A stretch of 25,637 nt of DNA from a virus (Duplodnaviria > Heunggongvirae > Uroviricota > Caudoviricetes). The translations under genes and the position numbers were made by a program. The stretch is from IMG/VR virus record IMGVR_UViG_2671181122_000005, positions 1-25,637 of that record; one strand, 5' to 3'. Positions within the stretch are counted from its first letter, which is position 1. Each line of letters opens with the position of its first letter. This document shows positions 1,763-17,046 of this stretch, piece by piece. Below the pieces are notes generated by a model. That model did no database searches and was not told the DNA's origin. It worked only from the letters and a program-made list of their open reading frames with translations.

Positions 1763-2812
1763 TTACCCAAGCACGCCAGTTGCAAAGGCGTGATCAAGAA
1801 AACGAAAAATTAAATCAACCTGAGAGCCATGCTTTTCTTCGAACGCCAGCGGATCCGCATGAAGCTCGTTGTGATGCTCCCGACACAGCGGTAGCGTGAA
1901 AATATCGTGAGATTTTGTCCCCATTCCGCCCTGACCATGACCAATCAGGTGATGGGGATCGTCGGCTGGCTTACCACAACACGCACACGGCTGAGTCTTC
2001 ACCCAGCGTGTGTATTTCTCGTTAACCCAGCGGCGACGTTTAGGTCGTTTCATGAAAGATTCCGGAGACTCAGGATCAACGGCAATGCTGACCACCGTCT
2101 TTTCCTGTGGTGGGTTCTGTTGCTGGTGGACGTCAGGCAGTAACGCAATATTTTTTGTGCGCTGCTTCAGTATGCTGGTGGCGGTCTGCTCTCCCGGCAC
2201 GATGTCGCTTTCACGGTACATTGAGCGGATTTTTTCCGCACGCACCCCCAGCGAACGACGTAATACCGCTTCCGGTAGCGCGTCCGCCACCTGATTGCGG
2301 ACCGCCCACCAGGATAATTCAGCCAAAGATAATTCACGCTCCTGCGTACCGCTTATTGCGTGACCGATGACGTCAATCATCCATGCTGACAGGTTTTGAT
2401 GAGCAAGTTGCTCGAGTGATTCGGATGTCTGGTCACGCAGCTGGTTGTCGCAGTGCCAGCACAACACCATTGCGCCGGTACCATAACGGTGAATGACAGT
2501 TTCGCTGTGATGATAATCGCCGTGTGGCCACTGGCAGGATTTAATATGGCGCAACAGCCAGTCAGACAATGCACCTGCACCACCAGCAGCACGAATCACC
2601 CGTGCGTTACTGAAAAACGGCAGCAATGTTTTGTCTTCCTCCAGCGGCTGGCGAACGGCAGGAACGACCCCGGACGGCAGATTACGCATGCTTTTCGGTT
2701 CCGGCTCCATCAATACCCGGGTATTGTGGAATACTGGCATGGATTCACGGCCCGGCTTAACGATCACCAGCCCGAGTTCCGGTACCAGAACAGGTCGAAG
2801 TAATACCCGCAC
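1763..2812 (-). CDS. ydfU: YdfU-like DUF968 protein (349 aa)
   Basis: Same length as K-12 YdfU. The C-terminus has the Cys/His-rich motif CACCGKPADDPHHLIGHGQGGMGTKSHDIFTLPLCREHHNELH. Confidence 0.75.
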   Translation of the reverse strand: MRVLLRPVLVPELGLVIVKPGRESMPVFHNTRVLMEPEPKSMRNLPSGVVPAVRQPLEEDKTLLPFFSNARVIRAAGGAGALSDWLLRHIKSCQWPHGDYHHSETVIHRYGTGAMVLCWHCDNQLRDQTSESLEQLAHQNLSAWMIDVIGHAISGTQERELSLAELSWWAVRNQVADALPEAVLRRSLGVRAEKIRSMYRESDIVPGEQTATSILKQRTKNIALLPDVHQQQNPPQEKTVVSIAVDPESPESFMKRPKRRRWVNEKYTRWVKTQPCACCGKPADDPHHLIGHGQGGMGTKSHDIFTLPLCREHHNELHADPLAFEEKHGSQVDLIFRFLDHAFATGVLG

Positions 2813-2813
2813 G

Positions 2814-3092
2814 TTACCTCCAGATGCGTTGCTGGAATGTGCGAGACGGACGCGGTGGGCGTTCAGAGTAAGGAAGCCTGACGGAGATTATCCAGTGACG
2901 GTAGTCGAGACTAAGGGCTTTCTTAACCTCGTATCCGCGCCTGCGGTAACACTGAATTATCCATTCAGCCTGCTCTTCAGTACATGGAGGGTGTTGGAAC
3001 CATTCAGACTTGAATGCGTGAGAATACCGCTCGTGCGTGCAGGCAAGAACGGGCGAATTATCAGAATTGTAATATTTTACGTTGCGTGCCAT
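2814..3092 (-). CDS. Small nin-region protein (92 aa), DUF1364/YbcO-like
   Basis: ORF packed tightly against ydfU, with its stop adjacent to the ydfU start. Family assignment is tentative and from memory. Confidence 0.5.
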   Translation of the reverse strand: MARNVKYYNSDNSPVLACTHERYSHAFKSEWFQHPPCTEEQAEWIIQCYRRRGYEVKKALSLDYRHWIISVRLPYSERPPRPSRTFQQRIWR

Positions 3093-3158
3093 CGGTTTTC
3101 TCCGGTGGCACGGTGTTACTCAGCGGGAGTTCAGCCCCGCGCAAGATTGTAGATGAGT

Positions 3159-3410
3159 TTATTCTTCTGCAAAAGCTGAAAAGCCTGCTTTTATTCCGAT
3201 CTCTTTCAGTGCCTGTAATGAAGTGACAAACTCACCTTCGCGCAAGATAAATCCGTCTGTCACTCGACCATCCACAAAATTAATTAACGCAGCCCCATTC
3301 TTTCGCAAACACATAATGCGGTAATGACTAACAAGATTTCCATTTTCAACGCACACAGCATAGAGGCCATCTTCACAAAAAATTTTACGCAGTTCTTCGA
3401 TGTTCATCAT
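3159..3410 (-). CDS. rem: Rem-like small protein (83 aa)
   Basis: 83-aa ORF immediately downstream (in minus-strand sense) of hokD, the position and size of Qin rem. No sequence-level confirmation was possible. Confidence 0.45.
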   Translation of the reverse strand: MMNIEELRKIFCEDGLYAVCVENGNLVSHYRIMCLRKNGAALINFVDGRVTDGFILREGEFVTSLQALKEIGIKAGFSAFAEE

Positions 3411-3523
3411 CAGAATCCTTCCGGATAATTAGCTCTCCCCTTTAAGGGACCATCCCTCTTATCCCTGCGCGCTACTTAAGTATTTTTGATTCTATTCCGG
3501 CGCCGTCCAGAACTTCAAACGCG

Positions 3524-3558
3524 TTGAAAATAAAAACAAAAACCCGCCGAAGCGGGTT
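3524..3558 (-). terminator. Intrinsic terminator at the 3' end of the hok transcript
   Basis: Stem cccgc/gcggg with a cgaa loop and a long A-run on the plus strand, giving a T-run after the stem on the minus strand, about 70 nt below the hok stop. Confidence 0.55.
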
Positions 3559-3626
3559 AAGTGCGGGTGCGTTGAGGATGCCTGCCACATCAGAGGTGGC
3601 GAGGGATTTCTCCCTCGCCGGGTCTC

Positions 3627-3782
3627 TTACTCCTCAGGTTCGTAAGCTGTGAAGACAGCGACCTCCGTCTGGCCGGTTCGGATTCGTACCTCGCAGAGGT
3701 CTTTCCTCGTTACCAGTGTCGTCACTATGACGGTTAAACAGATGACGATCAGGGCGATTAACATCGCCTTTTGCTGCTTCAT
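3627..3782 (-). CDS. hokD: Hok/Gef family type I toxin, HokD (RelF)-like, 51 aa
   Basis: The internal Met of the 70-aa ORF gives MKQQKAMLIALIVICLTVIVTTLVTRKDLCEVRIRTGQTEVAVFTAYEPEE, which differs from K-12 HokD at about one residue. Confidence 0.9.
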   Translation of the reverse strand: MKQQKAMLIALIVICLTVIVTTLVTRKDLCEVRIRTGQTEVAVFTAYEPEE

Positions 3783-4095
3783 AGCCTGCTTCTCCTTGCC
3801 TTCCGGCACGTAAGAGGCTAACCTACATGTGTCTAGCATGAAATTGGCCTCAGATTAATGTTAAGCGTCTTGCAGGACGCGTAATGTTAACTGGGGCTTT
3901 TCTCTATCTGCCTTTGGTGTTCATGCCTGAGACAGATAGCCTCAAGCACCCGCAGCCATTCTACTTAACTCCCGTTACCCCGCCAATATGAAATCAGTCA
4001 GAAAGGCGATCCATAAGAATAATGAATTCTGTAAGGCAATAGTCTCACTGTCTAACATATCTTACCTGATTACTTTACAATATAATAATTCATAG

Positions 4096-4740
4096 TTAAA
4101 TCAAATGAATGTCATCATCCAATAATTCATTAGTAGTAATACTACCTTTTTTGAAAAAATTTTCATTTGTCTCAGCAATTTTTGCATCATTAACAAATTC
4201 ATCACACATCCCAAAATAATGAAAAAATCTATTTAGTTTACATATTCCAATGGTATAGTGCCCTTTAGGTGTTTTGTCCACATAAACACGATTTGCTTTT
4301 ATAATATGCATCTCATAATCATCTATATGTGGATGAACGATGCGAAATGATGCAGATGCAGTTGGATAGTTTTTGCGCCGCCCCCCATTTATTACGGGTT
4401 CAAATAACACTTCATTTTTACCTTTGAATTCATTGCAGTCAGGACATACTACACATAGATTCTTAGGTTCAAAAATAAAACATAGATATTGAGATTTTGG
4501 CACAATATGCTCTATAGGAGCAGCTTGTGCAGCTCTTACCCCAATAGGCTCATGACAATATACACATTCTAGCTTTTGTTCTTCTCTGTAATGATTTCTA
4601 ATTTCTGCACGGAGAACTTGCAAATCATCATCTCCCCAGTTGGTATGCTTAAAATCTGGAGAAGACAATTTTTTCTCAATAATATCTAATGACTCTGCGC
4701 TGAATCTAATTGGATTTTTAATTTTTGGCATAAATTTCAC
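4096..4740 (-). CDS. HNH endonuclease (214 aa), PtuB-like partner of the upstream ATPase
   Basis: HNH/zinc-finger core: CVYCHEP (aa 59-65), EHIVPKS (aa 77-83), CVVCPDCN (aa 96-103). The start overlaps the ATPase gene by 23 nt. AT-rich codon usage. Confidence 0.75.
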   Translation of the reverse strand: MKFMPKIKNPIRFSAESLDIIEKKLSSPDFKHTNWGDDDLQVLRAEIRNHYREEQKLECVYCHEPIGVRAAQAAPIEHIVPKSQYLCFIFEPKNLCVVCPDCNEFKGKNEVLFEPVINGGRRKNYPTASASFRIVHPHIDDYEMHIIKANRVYVDKTPKGHYTIGICKLNRFFHYFGMCDEFVNDAKIAETNENFFKKGSITTNELLDDDIHLI

Positions 4741-6091
4741 ACACCTGAGATACGGAATTTACGAGTTCATTAATAGGGTCATTACTATTAACGTTTTCAA
4801 GGAGAAGTTGGAGTTGTTTTAATTCACGCCAATTATCATCTGTTACTAACTTAGCAGTCTTAACTTTTGAAAGTAAATTGAAAGCTAACCTGGCAATGTA
4901 TTCATTCATAATGCCAGGGGCATCAAATAGTTCCGCAAGTTGATAGTCTGCAGACCGGTTGCTAAAGTATTTTGCTTTATAAAGATAACTTTTCGACAAA
5001 GATGTTATATAACAACCTTTATTCGGCAAATTGGATATTATTTGTGGTGAATGAGTTGCAATTATGAATTGACAACCTGAGTAAGTTAAAAATGCTTTTG
5101 TTAACATAATGATAAACTCTTCCTGCCATCGAGGATGCAAGCTTATTTCCGGTTCATCAATTAATATTATAGAACCATCAGTTATATGCCCTGCAATTCC
5201 AAGCAACATCACTAATAAACATTGTTCTCCCGAGCTCGCACGTTTAAGTGACATGGGACCATAGCTTTTTTTTATGAGTCGCATATCCATCAATCTCATG
5301 AAGCCAGCGTTCATAAGTTTAAGAATTGATCTAGAAAAATAATTATTCGCATAAGTCGAGCCAACCAATGTTTCACCATTGGTAAAATCGACTGACAAGG
5401 TTACAGCCCTACGTTCAGGTTCAAATCGATTAATTTCAACCAGTGCTTCGTAAATATCATGACGTGATTCGGAGTTTAACTTTAAGAGACTCTCAATATT
5501 CTTCCTGTCAATTTTTATATTGTATTTTAAATATAACTCCTTAACTTCCGTTAATATCTCATCTGAATATACACCAATGAAGTTATAGTCAGGAGTGTCC
5601 GGTCCGTTGTAAGTTGGTTTAAATACAAACTCTATATGGGGCTCAAAATCAATAGAATGAAAAACATCGAGTAAATTTGCAGGATTTTCTGAATAAGCAA
5701 GTTTCTCTAGCCAACCTCTCGCTGCTGAAGATAAAAGGGATACGGCATTTGATACGCCGAAGGGGCCTTCTCCACGCATACCCACATAGCGATAATTATT
5801 TTCTTTCCTTTGGTGATTTAATGACCTACGCCCTGGAGGGAATTTATCGAATGGGCTGGTAGATACGGCAATTAACTTTGGTGTTATTTCTCTGTCAAAT
5901 AATGGATTAAAAGTTTTCAAGAAATGAACATCTTGAATACAGTCTTTAGCAATCTGAGATAACAATCTGCTTTTTCCAACGCCATTTTTACCTACAATTA
6001 CTGTAAAAATATTCGCATTATCAGAAACATCACCTTCTATAGCAAGTTTTAAGGTTCGACTATCATGATGGGTATAATATAGTCTTTTCAT
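4718..6091 (-). CDS. ABC/AAA_21-type ATPase (457 aa), PtuA-like
   Basis: Walker A GKNGVGKS (aa 34-41), signature-like SSGEQ (aa 286-290), Walker B IILIDEPE (aa 308-315), H-loop ATHS (aa 345-348), with a long insert between Walker A and the signature, as in SMC/RecF-like defence ATPases. Confidence 0.75.
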   Translation of the reverse strand: MKRLYYTHHDSRTLKLAIEGDVSDNANIFTVIVGKNGVGKSRLLSQIAKDCIQDVHFLKTFNPLFDREITPKLIAVSTSPFDKFPPGRRSLNHQRKENNYRYVGMRGEGPFGVSNAVSLLSSAARGWLEKLAYSENPANLLDVFHSIDFEPHIEFVFKPTYNGPDTPDYNFIGVYSDEILTEVKELYLKYNIKIDRKNIESLLKLNSESRHDIYEALVEINRFEPERRAVTLSVDFTNGETLVGSTYANNYFSRSILKLMNAGFMRLMDMRLIKKSYGPMSLKRASSGEQCLLVMLLGIAGHITDGSIILIDEPEISLHPRWQEEFIIMLTKAFLTYSGCQFIIATHSPQIISNLPNKGCYITSLSKSYLYKAKYFSNRSADYQLAELFDAPGIMNEYIARLAFNLLSKVKTAKLVTDDNWRELKQLQLLLENVNSNDPINELVNSVSQVCEIYAKN

Positions 6092-6503
6092 TTTATTTTT
6101 CTCTCATTAAAATGCTCTTAATTAAGAATACCTATGCCTTTAACAGGCTCATAGTTATGATTTGTGATGCTTTCAAAAGGGTATGTAACTAAGTATTGAA
6201 CTCTACACCTAAGATTCTAAGATTTTTAAATTAAAGTAGTTAAACATGCTTTTGATTGTACTCATTCTATGTCCATCGTTGCTGCATGTCTAGATATCGT
6301 GCCCCGCTATTGTTATGTAATGATATGATGGACGCCCTGTCTGAAGCAGCCAGTGAAATATTTTTACTGTCTGCGTTTTCTACAGGAGTAAATCACATGA
6401 GCACAATCAGAGTTGTTGGTATTGATATTGACCTGTGCCCAATTTTTTGAGACATATATTGGTACGCTCTTGGCACAGGGCTGCTGCTGCAGCCCTGACA
6501 GCT

Positions 6504-7072
6504 TTAGACTTCGATCGATTCAGAGATCTCTAATGCATCATCAACTTCTATACCCAGATAACGAACTGTGCTTTCCGTTTTCTTATGGCCCAACGGAAGT
6601 TGGATCACCCGGAGATTCTTAGTTTTCTTGCAGACAAGGCAAGGTTTTGTTCTTCTCATGGAATGTGTGCTGTAAAGCGAATCTTCGAGACCAAGCTTTT
6701 CTCCCCCCTATGAAAGATTCGGTTATATTGCAGGATTGATATGTGTTGGTTAGTACCGACCCGAGATCGGAACAAGTAGTCTTTACTGCGTAAATTGCCA
6801 AGCTTTATCAATGCAGAAACAGCTTCTCTTGTCCCTTTGGTTATCTCAAATTGGATAGGACTGCCAGTTTTTCAGTTGCAGCACCGTAGCTCTGCTTGAA
6901 ACCGAGCTAAATCACGCGTTTTACCTTCCAGTTCAAGCCGGATTTGGAGCCCCCAGATATGAGATATCTGAAGTGGTCTTTTTGGGCCTATGATACTGTC
7001 TTTGTTCCTCGGTGACGTATTCATACTCAAATCTCCTGCAATGTGGAAGATTTGAGTATGGTTGTCTCTCAA
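6504..7072 (-). pseudogene. Frameshifted small tyrosine recombinase (FimB/FimE-size) remnant
   Basis: Minus-strand frame ending at 6504 encodes ...LYSTHSMRRTKPCLVCKKTKNLRVIQLPLGHKKTESTVRYLGIEVDDALEISESIEV*, with the HxxR...LGH...Y catalytic C-terminal pattern. Upstream pieces sit in two other frames (ORFs 6619..6801 and 6872..7072), with one shift at a C6/G6 homopolymer (6703-6708). Confidence 0.45.
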
Positions 7073-7125
7073 GAGCGAAATAGGTCAACTATAACTAGTT
7101 GTTGTGCATGTACGAATTCTGCCAA

Positions 7126-7971
7126 TTAATTATTGACAATAAAAATTCTGGAATGTTCGAAATCATCATATCGAATTATAATCTGGTTGACTGCATCTAT
7201 TGTTGGCGCCATTTCAGTTATAATATCTCGATAACCTAAAGAGTTAAATACATTTACTAAGGCCTCACACCGCAGGCCAATAGCAATTACGACATTATAA
7301 ATTGCCAGCCGTTTATTTTCTTGTTTAACTGCAAGAGTGAGTTCGATAGCAGTAGTTTTATCGCTTTGGATTGCATTATATAGAGATACTATATTTGCCA
7401 TATCATCAGAGAATGTATGTATTGAATCACAAAGAGGGACGTAATAGGCATGATAGTGTGTTTCCCAGCCAATTACTTCGAAAAGCTTTTTGGTTCCAGG
7501 ATATTCAGGTGTATTTGGCCACAATCTATTAAACATATCAGTTAGCTCTTTTCCGATACGAATCCTTTCATCTGCTGCTGGATTAGTCATTTCTTTGGAT
7601 TTTAAACACTCCAGCCACCGTTTCCCATTACTATGAACTAATTTCTTACTACCCTTGAGTAATGCTTGTGCATTTTTTCCATCATCAATTGCTATATAAA
7701 ATTGATTGGCAGCCTGTTCCATTATAACTCTAGTTAATACTTCCGATGCTGAAAAGGCTCCGGTACTCAAAGAAAATATAGCCTGATTACTAAGTTCATT
7801 CAGTACATTAAAGTAATGTAAAACCATCAATTTTTGTTCCACCCCCTTTAGGTTATCTATTTTATTTTTATGCCTCTCAAATTTCGCATGGATATATTTA
7901 TTTATCGCGGCTATTTTTTTTACATCTTCGTCGAAATCAAACGGGCAACGTCCAAACGATTTTTTCCTCAT
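7126..7971 (-). CDS. Hypothetical protein (281 aa), unassigned; candidate accessory/defence gene
   Basis: Long AT-rich ORF in the accessory block. No family recognised. The C-terminus has an Rx5H-type motif (RYDDFEH) that could be HEPN-like. Confidence 0.6.
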   Translation of the reverse strand: MRKKSFGRCPFDFDEDVKKIAAINKYIHAKFERHKNKIDNLKGVEQKLMVLHYFNVLNELSNQAIFSLSTGAFSASEVLTRVIMEQAANQFYIAIDDGKNAQALLKGSKKLVHSNGKRWLECLKSKEMTNPAADERIRIGKELTDMFNRLWPNTPEYPGTKKLFEVIGWETHYHAYYVPLCDSIHTFSDDMANIVSLYNAIQSDKTTAIELTLAVKQENKRLAIYNVVIAIGLRCEALVNVFNSLGYRDIITEMAPTIDAVNQIIIRYDDFEHSRIFIVNN

Positions 7972-8410
7972 ATATTCCTCCTGTTTTACAATCTCCCATA
8001 AGTTGGAAAATTATACACTGGAGATTACCTATAAATAACTGCGCACGATAGCTAGTCAGTGCAAGAAGTACAAACAAGTGAACGGTGCGTATCAGATACC
8101 TAGCTTAAAGTTCGCGATAGCCGTACTCTGTGTATTAGCTCAGACATTACCTGACAGGTTGAGTAGATAGAATCGAATCAAAGCTGACAGTCTGGTTTGG
8201 ACTGTGGGGTCAACCGATGGATGCAACACACAGCGATCTACAGACATTACTAACATAGCGGTGTATTAATCATCGGGGAGCAGATCAGACTAACATTAAG
8301 CATTAGTAGTAATTTGCAGAGCATCCGTTTCTTACACAAAGCAAACCCCCACGCTAGCCCAACCCTGTGCCACACAATGTCAATTCACATCTGAACTAAT
8401 GCTCTTTAAT

Positions 8411-11613: not shown

Positions 11614-11766
11614 ATGGATACTATCGATCTTGGCAACAACGAATCTCTGGTGTACGGCGTGTTCCCCAACCAGGGCGGTACGTTCACCGCGATGACATAT
11701 ACCAAAAGCAAAACGTTTAAAACCGGATCTGGCGCGCGTTGCTGGTTAGCCAGAAACACTGACTGA
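11614..11766 (+). CDS. ydfA: YdfA-like small protein (50 aa)
   Basis: The internal Met, with a GAGG SD, gives MDTIDLGNNESLVYGVFPNQGGTFTAMTYTKSKTFKTGSGARCWLARNTD. Size and position match K-12 ydfA. Confidence 0.6.
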   Translation: MDTIDLGNNESLVYGVFPNQGGTFTAMTYTKSKTFKTGSGARCWLARNTD

Positions 11767-12143
11767 TGAGGCTGACGATGGAATTTAAAGATTTACCGTC
11801 TGATGTACAGAAAACAGCAGCTCATACATTGCATTCTGTGCTGCGAGAAATCGGGAAAGATATTGCAAGCGAGCCAGCAAAAGATCTGGCCCGGAAAATC
11901 AAGACCGCTTTCGTTGAGCTTTATAATGTTGGCACTGACTCTGAAACTGTCGAGACCAAGACCGTAAGTTCACCAATATTCTCACTTGAGCCAAGCGTAT
12001 TATCAGGTGAAATATGCACCGAGATTTCCAGCGAACTGCTTCCGGTAATACGAGAAGCAATTTGCCGTCGCGGTTTGGATGGAAGTTACGATCATGACGT
12101 CCTGCAAGTTCTCAGGACAATGGTGACTTCACTGGGGATTTGA
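11766..12143 (+). CDS. YdfB/YdfC-like protein (121-125 aa)
   Basis: ORF overlapping the ydfA stop (TGATG). An alternative start at 11778 has a GAGG SD. It occupies the ydfB-ydfC position upstream of dicF. Confidence 0.55.
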   Translation: MRLTMEFKDLPSDVQKTAAHTLHSVLREIGKDIASEPAKDLARKIKTAFVELYNVGTDSETVETKTVSSPIFSLEPSVLSGEICTEISSELLPVIREAICRRGLDGSYDHDVLQVLRTMVTSLGI

Positions 12144-12312
12144 TCCCTGCGTCCTCTAACCTTTTGATATAGCGGTCCTCCAAGAAGCGGTAAATTTTGT
12201 CGAAATCATCTTTCCCCTCTGGTTTATTCAGAGGATTACAGGACCCGTAAGTAGCGGCATACATTTCAACCGTTTTATCAAAAATATAAGAGACAAATTC
12301 TTCTTTAGTCAT
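12112..12312 (-). CDS. Small convergent ORF (66 aa) with a strong SD, inside the dicB operon region
   Basis: ATG at 12312 preceded by AAGGAAATCTAT, encoding MTKEEFVSYIFDKTVEMYAATYGSCNPLNKPEGKDDFDKIYRFLEDRYIKRLEDAGIKSPVKSPLS. No family recognised. Confidence 0.35.
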   Translation of the reverse strand: MTKEEFVSYIFDKTVEMYAATYGSCNPLNKPEGKDDFDKIYRFLEDRYIKRLEDAGIKSPVKSPLS

Positions 12313-12587
12313 ATAGATTTCCTTCTTGGTTATTCGGGATAAGAAGGATACCACCTCGCCTGACGTGGTTAAAAGCAGGCACACAACACGAAAGCGCACG
12401 GCGAAGTTCGTCTCACTGTACGGTGTCGTTAAATTTAATTCGACCGTGCGCTTCCGGTTGTGGCAACCCGCGAAATGGCGCGGCGGTAAGTATGGCGGGG
12501 TTATTCCTTCCCCCGTTGAGGACACCGGGTTGTCAGGTTGACCATACGCTTAAGTGACAACCCCGCTGCAACGCCCTCTGTTATCAA

Positions 12588-15817: not shown

Positions 15818-16021
15818 ATGAGCAGCTTATTTTTAACCGAAGATGAATTGCTAATATTAACGGGCTGCAAATATGCAAGCCACCAGCGAAAATGGTTAAT
15901 GGAAAACGGGCTTCCGTTCTATACCAATCGTAGTGGCAAACCGATTGTCAGCCGGGATCTATTTACCTGCAATAAAACTTTACCACCACGCGAGGTAGAG
16001 CCGAATTTTGGTGCGATCTGA
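15818..16021 (+). CDS. Excisionase-like protein (67 aa)
   Basis: Small ORF immediately upstream of int, with its stop overlapping the int ATG (TGATG). Typical xis placement. Confidence 0.6.
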   Translation: MSSLFLTEDELLILTGCKYASHQRKWLMENGLPFYTNRSGKPIVSRDLFTCNKTLPPREVEPNFGAI

Positions 16022-17046
16022 TGGGAAGACGAAGGAAAAATCCTGAACACGAAAAATTACCTCCAAATGTATACCCAAATAAATATAGTTATGTATGGAA
16101 ACCAACATCCAGAGAATCTGTAACACTAACCGCCATCAAGGATGGTTTAGCTGCTTTATGGAAAAAGTATGAGGAAACTGTAAATAATCGCGATCGTGCA
16201 ATGACATTCGGTCGCTTGTGGGAAAAATTCCTCGCCAGCGCCTGTTACAGTGACCTTAGCCCAAGAACACAAAAAGATTATCTGCAACATCAAAAAAAGT
16301 TGCTTGCCGTATTCGGTAAGGTACCAGCGGATTCCATAAAACCAGAACACATCCGTCGATACATGGACAAAAGAGGGGAACAGAGCAAAACGCAAGCCAA
16401 CCATGAAAAAAGCAGTATGTCCCGCGTTTACAGTTGGGGATATGAGCGAGGGTACGTGAAGGCTAACCCATGTGCAGGTGTAAGTAAATTCAAGGCCAAA
16501 AACCGCGAACGATATGTAACCGACAAAGAATACCAGGCAGTATTAAGCGTTGCACCTCTTCCTGTTTTTATCGCAATGGAAATTGCCTATCTGTGTGCAG
16601 CGAGGGTTTCCGATGTGTTATCGCTGAAATGGGAGCAGATTGGAAACGACGGGATCTTTATCCAGCAAGGGAAAACAGGGAAAAAACAGATAAAAGCATG
16701 GAGTCCACGATTACAGGCGGCGATCGAAAAAGCAAAACAGTTACCAACATCCGCCTATGTAATCAGCAATCAATACGGCAACCGATATATGTACAAAGGC
16801 TTTAACGAAATGTGGGTAGAAGCAAGAAATCGCGCAGGCAAAATTTCAGGTATTTTAACCGACTTCACCTTTCATGATCTGAAGGCGAAAGGAATTTCAG
16901 ACTATGAAGGAAGCAGTCGGGATAAGCAACTTTTCTCTGGTCACAAAACCGAAGGGCAAGTGCTAATCTATGACAGGAAGGTTAAAGTTTCACCAACACT
17001 TGATGTCCCGTTACCTGAAAATATTCCAAGACAATATTCCAAGTAA
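16021..17046 (+). CDS. Tyrosine integrase (lambda Int family, 341 aa)
   Basis: C-terminal catalytic region with HDLKAKG...SGHKTEGQVLIYDRK (R-H-R-Y pattern), adjacent to the att core. Confidence 0.9.
   Translation: MGRRRKNPEHEKLPPNVYPNKYSYVWKPTSRESVTLTAIKDGLAALWKKYEETVNNRDRAMTFGRLWEKFLASACYSDLSPRTQKDYLQHQKKLLAVFGKVPADSIKPEHIRRYMDKRGEQSKTQANHEKSSMSRVYSWGYERGYVKANPCAGVSKFKAKNRERYVTDKEYQAVLSVAPLPVFIAMEIAYLCAARVSDVLSLKWEQIGNDGIFIQQGKTGKKQIKAWSPRLQAAIEKAKQLPTSAYVISNQYGNRYMYKGFNEMWVEARNRAGKISGILTDFTFHDLKAKGISDYEGSSRDKQLFSGHKTEGQVLIYDRKVKVSPTLDVPLPENIPRQYSK

Follow-up and report, generated by a model that had tools for sequence, protein, structure and literature searches.

The 25,637-nucleotide (nt) viral sequence analyzed here, IMG/VR record IMGVR_UViG_2671181122_000005 (hereafter, the window), carries on its minus strand, at 6504-7024, the remains of a gene for a 200-amino-acid (aa) tyrosine recombinase that consists of a catalytic domain only. 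We refer to this protein as small Int and to its gene as int, and we think it probable that the window int is a decayed, immobilized member of a cassette-exchange system resembling integrons or the pdif modules of Acinetobacter plasmids. Intact relatives lie in a discrete module between palindromes, the palindromes recur in a regular grammar between the neighboring genes, and whole cassettes differ between genomes at these sites. The window copy is an ordinary, dead example of the small-Int system, which survives there as a fossil.

The window copy of int is a pseudogene

As the original prediction, made from this sequence alone, had proposed, the minus strand encodes a tyrosine recombinase broken over three frames. 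Three-frame translation gives MNTSPRNKDSIIGPKRPLQISHIWGLQIRLELEGKTRDLA..., ...KTGSPIQFEITKGTREAVSALIKLGNLRSKDYLFRSRVGTNQHIS... and ...LGLEDSLYSTHSMRRTKPCLVCKKTKNLRVIQLPLGHKKTESTVRYLGIEVDDALEISESIEV*, running from an ATG at 7022-7024 to a stop codon at 6504-6506, and the motifs quoted in that prediction, HSMRRT... and LGHKKTESTVRYLGIEVDDAL, are both present. We placed the lesions by aligning the DNA to an intact 603-nt homolog (locus L002, 8043-8645; WP_001305361, a 200-aa 'site-specific integrase'); the window int is 90-92% identical to intact genes of this type at the nucleotide level. An 82-nt deletion, with its junction at approximately 6900-6910, lies between two copies of a 10-nt direct repeat of the intact gene, TAGCTCTGTT, and takes out residues ~40-66, including R51, the first catalytic arginine, which is invariant in 26 homologs. 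Further along (6868-6874), an extra A in the A5 run at 6868-6872 together with a substitution creates an in-frame TGA at 6872-6874. The G6 run at 6703-6708 (C6 on the plus strand), where the prediction had placed a shift, has indeed lost one base relative to the intact homolog, giving a -1 frameshift. With R51 deleted, two frameshifts and one TGA, the window copy is not a complete in-frame enzyme. Two dimensions of the prediction need correction: the reconstructed protein was put at about 190 aa, whereas intact relatives have 200, and the gene was drawn from position 6100, but 6100-6461 is the non-coding leader of the adjacent PtuA/PtuB cassette.

The lesions are real and do not reflect an assembly error concealing an intact gene, because they are common to independent genomes and viral contigs. 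The window is E. coli DNA, and its stretch 6100-7125 is unbroken at 98.8-100% identity in 18 complete E. coli genomes, and the 521-nt length and all lesions are identical in 10 independent sequences, including nine IMG/VR contigs. RefSeq labels the same 521 nt in strain E2348/69 'tyrosine-type recombinase/integrase; frameshifted; internal stop'. Phase variation through the homopolymer, which had been suggested as length variation detectable in reads, is also ruled out: the length of the G6 run is constant in 10 of 10 independent copies, E2348/69 carries a G>A substitution within it, and the 82-nt deletion is irreversible. Even with the G run repaired, the deleted catalytic arginine would stay lost. 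The ratio of nonsynonymous to synonymous substitution rates (dN/dS) is 0.07-0.09 among intact copies versus 0.18-0.21 for the window copy against intact copies, a rise that fits relaxed constraint. At megablast sensitivity, no second copy of the gene was found in E2348/69.

Decay of small int is common in other loci as well. The copy in strain FHI_NMBU_11 (L164, 2643-3245) has an internal stop, the C-terminus is replaced after YLGIEVD in P2-like loci (L104, 8001-8585), Yersinia phages keep 74-nt 5' stubs (L009 and L010, 5001-5074), and protein libraries hold many fragmentary representatives.

Small Int falls outside the named recombinase families of NCBIfam

The intact homolog matches Pfam PF00589 (69.1 bits, E 5.3e-19, residues 35-184) and the PHROG 216 integrases (9e-32); approximately 34 residues precede the catalytic domain, and there is no separate core-binding domain. 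R51, K79, H148, R151, H174 and Y183 are invariant among 26 intact relatives. Four of these residues, H148, R151, H174 and Y183, align with XerD H244, R247, H270 and Y279, and R51 and K79 are assigned by position only. NCBIfam places the protein in no named family: the top match is XerA, at 58 bits against a cut-off of 220, with the XerC model at 49.6 bits against 335, XerD at 32.1 against 330, and the integron integrase TIGR02249 at 15.9 against 265 (200 aa for small Int compared with approximately 320 aa). Matches in the PDB are to distant Xer proteins only. The likeness to FimB and FimE drawn in the original prediction holds for size and for the catalytic-domain-only layout, but family membership is ruled out, the Fim-type invertase models NF007370 and NF007371 giving 18.2 and 25.5 bits against cut-offs of 221 and 222.

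Sequence identity within the family is 76-96% from E. coli to Proteus, Pantoea, Idiomarina and Pseudoalteromonas and approximately 60% into Pseudomonas and the Betaproteobacteria, and 569 clusters at 50% identity reach E<=1e-30, many of them fragments. The intact family is very large, unusually conserved and proteobacterial. Small int is not the integrase of the prophage in the window, because the prophage has an ordinary full-length integrase of its own at 16021-17046.

The int gene is nested between palindromic sites

Small int is a discrete module of approximately 710 bp between two 24-bp palindromes. When the intact locus is compared by blastn with the loci collected here (designated by L numbers), the homologous stretch invariably opens 53-66 nt ahead of the ATG and closes 41-49 nt past the stop codon in more than 30 unrelated contexts; 800-900 E. 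coli genomes show the same borders. One motif, in inverted copies, forms both ends of the module, as exemplified by TGTCCGCTTCTGGCCGGTTAGCGAC in a Pseudomonas locus, where 24 of 25 positions match. This motif is a palindrome, GTCCGCT-N10-AGCGGAC, which in a scan recurred between the genes around int: 99 sites with at most two mismatches lie in 495 kb of enteric int loci, compared with two in shuffled sequence.

The resulting arrays have a simple layout. One or two genes, on either strand, make up a cargo unit, which is flanked by a class-1 site, with a spacer close to GTGTGCCAAG, and a class-2 site, with a spacer close to CCTCGCTCAC. Two neighboring cargo units are separated by a 66-bp doublet in which a class-2 site, an 18-nt linker and a class-1 site follow one another. 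The int gene takes the exact place of the 18-nt linker; in other words, a doublet is an int module without int. With an 81-nt doublet as the query, matches lie at 1-4 places per genome in 1249 of 5426 E. coli genomes, and the doublet is therefore a low-copy accessory element and not a proliferating repeat. Int itself occupies 1-3 places per genome, the two elements being present in 802-1249 of the 5426 genomes.

Hairpins complete the module on either side of the gene. The Shine-Dalgarno (SD) sequence (AGGAG) and ATG of the window int are paired within a hairpin at 7022-7060 (minus strand) that has a perfect 13-bp stem and a 13-nt loop (z -5.9). The SD hairpin is family-wide, with a CTCC..GGAG core, and the ATG is also paired in enterics. 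Its flanks covary, with 91% and 75% paired versus 49% and 43% after permutation in an anchored count; alignment by MAFFT followed by RNAalifold left the stems out of register and predicted nothing. Fold-back inhibition is well established for IS10 and IS50, and by analogy the SD hairpin probably keeps read-through transcripts from being translated. The int stop codon is directly followed by a terminator-like GC-rich hairpin, CAGGGCTGC-AGCA-GCAGCCCTG (6476-6497, minus strand), which also belongs to the module. No second copy of the int-proximal hairpin or its arms was found elsewhere in the window, and no Rfam family matches the hairpin, the sites or the doublets. P2-like phages of Yersinia and E. 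coli retain only the first ~74 nt of the module, between the tail genes G and FI, an interval that is the classical Z/fun moron site.

Some arrays hold two int modules 2-4 kb apart, as in L012 (7934-8652 and 11803-12504) and L019 (1167-1872 and 3898-4592), and L056 has a second site pair at 11642-12388. The paired modules in L012 and L019 differ by approximately 20% in sequence, which suggests accretion of independent int-bearing units.

A module of this shape invites comparison with a transposable element, and our first reading of the palindromes was as the terminal inverted repeats of a miniature insertion sequence (IS). That reading was revised, the same palindromes lying between all neighboring genes and being low in copy number. 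In its general form, the alternative holds that int and its terminal repeats are a selfish minimal IS that transposes itself, that doublets are derivatives like miniature inverted-repeat transposable elements, and that the link to defense genes is incidental, reflecting a shared preference for AT-rich hotspots. A 710-bp unit with sharp ends and inverted terminal sites in many contexts is what such an element would look like, a doublet corresponds to the unit without int, and the hairpin that sequesters the ribosome-binding site resembles the textbook fold-back of IS10 and IS50. The copy numbers given above are low for such an element, however, doublets alternate regularly with cargo rather than being scattered, cargo units move as site-flanked blocks, independently of int, and no target-site duplications were noticed. 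We regard a minimal IS as distinctly unlikely.

Cassettes differ between genomes at the sites

The reading of the palindromes as exchange sites draws on where related arrays diverge. In a set of 39 enteric loci, a site is found within 30 bp of 18% of the internal megablast breakpoints, compared with 1.9% for random positions, and none of 200 randomizations reached the observed proximity. Individual pairs of loci resolve the joints more finely. Strains Nissle 1917 and FDAARGOS_536 have int and a HEC-08 cassette in common at 99.7% identity; their sequences diverge precisely at the two sites that follow int and the HEC-08 cassette. In WCHEC025943 the order is int, site, PD-T7-1, doublet and a gene for a 314-aa protein; in FHI_NMBU_11 the 314-aa gene follows int and its site directly, the joint falling within the 24-bp site or at its edge. 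Copies of the 314-aa cassette in four unrelated contexts (the lambdoid slot, a vat/e14-like region and two Ag43 islands) are 99.1-99.3% identical. When one of these loci is compared with the other three, homology ends at the last class-1 base in two and two bases beyond in the third; it begins within the class-2 site in two of them and, in the remaining one, 12 nt ahead of that site.

The same kind of site is found in lambdoid and P2 hotspots, in integrative and conjugative elements (ICEs) of the SXT type and in islands. The palindromes bracket PD-T7-1, PD-T7-5, HEC-08 and P2 fun(Z), and in the window they bracket a DUF5677 gene on both sides and the Septu genes on the int-proximal side only. 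The cargo adjoining int elsewhere includes PD-T7-1, PD-T7-5, HEC-08 and dynamin-like pairs. Cargo of these arrays thus comprises proteins already known from anti-phage defense. In P2, fun(Z) is flanked by GTCCACTCTGTGCCAAAAGCGGAC and TTCCGCTTCTCGCTCAAAGGAAAC. According to a review (PMC8987985) that cites Nilsson et al. 2004, inverted repeats on either side of fun enable site-specific exchange between phages and bacteria, and we infer that the palindromes seen here are the repeats summarized there. In SXT/R391-like ICEs (L003-L008), one identical 200-aa Int (P0063) lies between the ars operon and variable cargo. This cargo, downstream of Int and next to traF, comprises merR/merC, dfrA and qac-like genes, with a class-1-type integron integrase in two loci; sites of the same kind adjoin int and lie at the far end by traF. 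The SXT/R391 hotspot thus appears to be shared by two different cassette systems.

Three E. coli islands (L158, L002 and L165) carry, directly downstream of int, dynamin-family gene pairs, an ETEC_3214-family protein and a CBS-domain protein. These genes may be further defense cargo.

Breakpoints at conserved repeats would also be left by homologous recombination, and we considered whether the palindromes and the int module are mere patches of homology or structural elements, such as terminators or mRNA-stabilizing hairpins, between which cargo is swapped by general or short-homology recombination, Int having another role or none. The doublets do fold into stable single-stranded hairpins, and a 2026 study of P2/P4 defense hotspots mentions neither inverted repeats nor palindromes. 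On the other hand, from Pseudomonas to E. coli the 7-bp arms are conserved in sequence and the spacers are not, a pattern that speaks for recognition by a protein and not for structure alone. In addition, 24 bp is very short for RecA, and the recombinase gene is always nested between two sites and is under strong purifying selection, as judged by the dN/dS among intact copies. Exchange through homology patches therefore seems to us unlikely.

A model for cassette exchange

In the model that we favor, Int would recombine the sites, and cargo together with a doublet would leave and enter as a circle at like sites. The module can be viewed as a composite site, in which a class-2 site is followed by the SD-sequestering hairpin, int, the terminator-like hairpin and a class-1 site. 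Int would bind the 7-bp arms and recombine like sites with each other; between two sites in direct orientation, cargo plus doublet would be excised as a circle, which could re-insert at a like site in another hotspot. The reaction would be analogous to integron attC x attI recombination or to the exchange of pdif modules. A cargo unit whose doublet carries int, such as the DUF5677+int unit described below, would be autonomous, and other units would be mobilized in trans.

We also put forward, more tentatively and with doubts of our own, a broader proposal: that the 200-aa Int and GTCCGCT-N10-AGCGGAC form a widespread, self-contained and unrecognized cassette platform, an 'integron of mobile-element hotspots' whose recombinase sits inside a composite site of its own. 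Such a platform could create and refill the hotspots of P2-like phages (Z/fun), lambdoid prophages (the hokD-side slot), SXT/R391 ICEs and E. coli islands, shuttling single-gene anti-phage systems and resistance genes among them.

Several observations weigh against the cassette-exchange model. All support for recombination is comparative, no event having been observed directly, and short-homology exchange at the 24-bp repeats, whether RecA-dependent or by slippage, could produce identical joints. No more than 17 of 75 loci have clear flanking repeats above the 99% shuffle level, and outside enterics the strict motif is enriched only approximately 3-fold (34 versus 11). The sites that survive in the window are all degenerate, and the hokD-side border (4023/4024) has lost any it may have had. 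A structure predicted by AlphaFold2 from a 26-sequence alignment, with a mean confidence (pLDDT) of 56.6, was too poor for fold searches. Finally, 7-bp arms around a 10-bp spacer are unusual for a double-stranded core site of a tyrosine recombinase.

The decayed array in the prophage slot

The window int lies in a low-GC variable slot of a lambdoid prophage (4024-8322), between hokD/sok and the DUF1627/P replication genes, that holds a decayed array. GC content is 0.31-0.44 in the slot versus ~0.5 in its flanks. Backbone homology of more than 3700 genomes stops at 4023, and homology to the WCHEC025943 locus (L159) breaks at 4023, 6465-7078 and 8313. The right border is a degenerate site, ATCCGTT TCTTACACAA AGCAAAC (8323-8346, plus strand), homologous to the perfect site GTCCGCTCTTGGCACAAAGCGGAC in WCHEC025943 (L159:10841-10864); the same backbone border site is present in IHE3034. 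WCHEC025943 has an intact int and different cargo in the same prophage slot.

The hokD/sok toxin-antitoxin locus (3627-3951; Rfam sok, 96.9 bits) adjoins the left slot border at 4023/4024. Prophages of the K-12 and IHE3034 types hold other cargo in this slot, for example QueH; an empty prophage slot was not found, the smallest occupant being a single QueH gene beside the resident border site. In E2348/69 (L001, 8654-9742), an IS481-family insertion lies between hokD and PtuB, and the corresponding part of the window (~2700-4023) is without it; beyond 6100-7125 the window thus differs from E2348/69. Beyond the prophage integrase, a low-GC NleF-like gene (17874-18443) is followed, up to 25345, by the tail end of a second lambdoid prophage (tail fiber, Lom, J), and we therefore take the two prophages to be tandem or adjacent.

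Within the slot, the int module is bounded upstream by a class-2 site and downstream by a class-1 site, both with mutated arms. The class-2 site (7064-7087, minus strand) reads TGACCTA TTTCGCTCTT GAGAGAC against the consensus GTCCGCT-TTTCGCTCAT-AAGGGAC, its left arm being destroyed; the class-1 site (6462-6485, minus strand) has the spacer CTGTGCCAAG and the arm AGCGTAC for AGCGGAC. Downstream of the class-1 site, a 370-nt leader precedes a Septu type I pair on the minus strand (4096-6091), consisting of adjacent, overlapping genes for the PtuA ATPase (4718-6091) and the PtuB HNH nuclease (4096-4740), with PADLOC matches of 1.2e-165 and 1.1e-83. The Septu cassette occurs in only 19 E. coli genomes, always in the same context, and a search for PtuA/PtuB between such sites elsewhere turned up no more than this locus and distant homologs.

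Upstream of int lies the DUF5677 gene (7126-7971, minus strand), whose 281-aa product belongs to PHROG 4167 (function unknown) and has no PADLOC match. A DUF5677+int unit 89.5% identical to that of the window recurs in P2-like Z/fun hotspot loci (L102, L104-L106 and L117); in one such P2-like prophage it is flanked by a well-preserved class-1 site, and the int frame stays open for 194 codons. This recurrence comes close to what the original prediction had offered as one of two possibilities, a mobile cassette that brought its own, now inactive recombinase. The site between DUF5677 and int already has a ruined arm in both the window and the P2-like hotspot, and the two genes therefore travel as one unit. 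The same comparison bears on whether the pseudogene is unrelated debris, that is, a fragment of an ordinary phage integrase left by illegitimate recombination and unconnected to its neighbors. As debris might be, the gene is defunct and resides in a mosaic prophage equipped with a full-length integrase, but it is a near full-length copy of a distinct 200-aa family, has kept its own flanking sites and hairpins, and recurs with DUF5677 in another phage type. We find debris scarcely credible.

The other possibility raised in the prediction was an invertible switch, and a search for flanking inverted repeats, proposed along with it, was productive. In addition to the degenerate 24-bp sites beside int, a 40-nt inverted repeat (6282-6321 and 8024-8063) lies in the PtuA and DUF5677 leaders and flanks int+DUF5677. 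With 31 of 39 positions matching, it scores 33, compared with a mean of 19.3 and a maximum of 30 in 500 shuffles. In a Fim- or Hin-like switch, Int would invert its own module or the 1.7-kb segment between the 40-nt repeats and so toggle the neighboring defense genes. The size and domain architecture shared with FimB/FimE, the location of int between inversely oriented sites, and the non-random 40-nt repeat are all in keeping with this. However, the Fim-type models score far below their cut-offs, and neither segment was seen in the opposite orientation in 18 genomes and 10 loci or, among the matches listed, in the L002-type locus, a comparison made on assemblies. Cassettes, moreover, vary by presence, absence and replacement, not by flipping. 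A switch is accordingly very improbable. The DUF5677-side arm of the 40-nt repeat is also present in the P2-like loci that carry the DUF5677+int unit, and the repeat may be a shared operator or a relic.

Returning to the cassette-exchange model, the DUF5677 and Septu genes would be frozen in the slot, fixed in the prophage, because Int is dead, three sites are mutated in their arms, the hokD side is without a site and E2348/69 yielded no second int copy. No phase-variable switch should be inferred from the homopolymer.

Implications for the turnover of defense genes

Current accounts of the rapid turnover of defense genes at fixed hotspots, in phages, satellites, ICEs and islands alike, mostly invoke homologous recombination at conserved flanks; the question is still open. 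If the proposal is correct, a dedicated small recombinase acting on short, recognizable sites would provide a concrete and testable mechanism for this turnover. It would also provide a rule for finding cassettes, as genes bracketed by GTCCGCT-N10-AGCGGAC. By this rule DUF5677, which is site-bounded cargo both in the window and in the P2 Z/fun hotspot, becomes a candidate anti-phage gene, and the unannotated 314-, 326- and 373-aa cargo proteins (L159, L009) are likewise candidates. The 2004 observation on P2 fun would become part of a far broader system, and the recombinase, compact at 200 aa and with a site of 24 bp, might serve as a tool.

Relation to known systems

Part of what we describe was already known, namely the RefSeq annotation of the pseudogene and, from the 2004 work, the inverted repeats around P2 fun. 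Among the papers that could be searched, we found none that prints the site sequences or WP_001305361 and none that describes a small recombinase nested in such sites. There is nevertheless real uncertainty as to whether the link between recombinase and sites has been described before. As summarized in a review (PMC8987985), the account of Nilsson, Karlsson and Haggard-Ljungquist (Mol Biol Evol 21:1) names the repeats and site-specific exchange; the summary mentions neither a recombinase nor a doublet grammar, and it says nothing of spread to lambdoid prophages, to ICEs or to other proteobacteria. The fun(Z) inverted-repeat cassette has palindromes of the same kind, and the same G-FI hotspot hosts the DUF5677+int unit and int remnants. 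Homologous palindromes bound DUF5677+int in the P2-like locus, and degenerate ones do so in the window.

FimB and FimE are alike in having approximately 200 aa, a catalytic domain only and no separate core-binding domain, but the similarity is at the superfamily level only, and no promoter-bearing invertible segment or orientation polymorphism was found among the loci compared. The layout recalls RAYT/REPIN systems, in which a single recombinase gene has flanking inverted palindromes and non-autonomous doublets occur elsewhere. RAYTs, however, are HUH enzymes of the IS200/IS605 type, whereas small Int belongs to PF00589 and its doublets are few and alternate with accessory genes.

The pdif (XerC/XerD) modules of Acinetobacter plasmids resemble the small-Int arrays in being discrete gene modules with inversely oriented short sites that alternate along arrays in many contexts. 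The small-Int system differs in having its own recombinase, which is no Xer orthologue (49.6 bits with the XerC model versus a cut-off of 335). Its GTCCGCT-N10-AGCGGAC sites are also unlike the 28-bp dif site.

Integrons likewise place a tyrosine recombinase beside a docking site. Their cassettes are small, frequently of a single gene, and form arrays in which an imperfect composite palindrome that can form a hairpin comes after each cassette, with precise gain and loss at the sites and with defense cargo. In contrast to integrons, small Int is without the IntI signature, its site sequence is unrelated to R''/L''-L'/R', and the recombinase lies within a doublet. Small-Int cassettes point both ways and have long 5' leaders, and for this reason are probably self-expressed, and their arrays are found in phage and ICE hotspots. 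Relative to attC and attI, then, the architecture is analogous, with doublets between cassettes and a site beside int, and the sequence and layout are unrelated. Overall, integrons and Acinetobacter pdif modules are the closest in function and RAYT/REPIN the closest in layout, but the small-Int system is a member of none of these.

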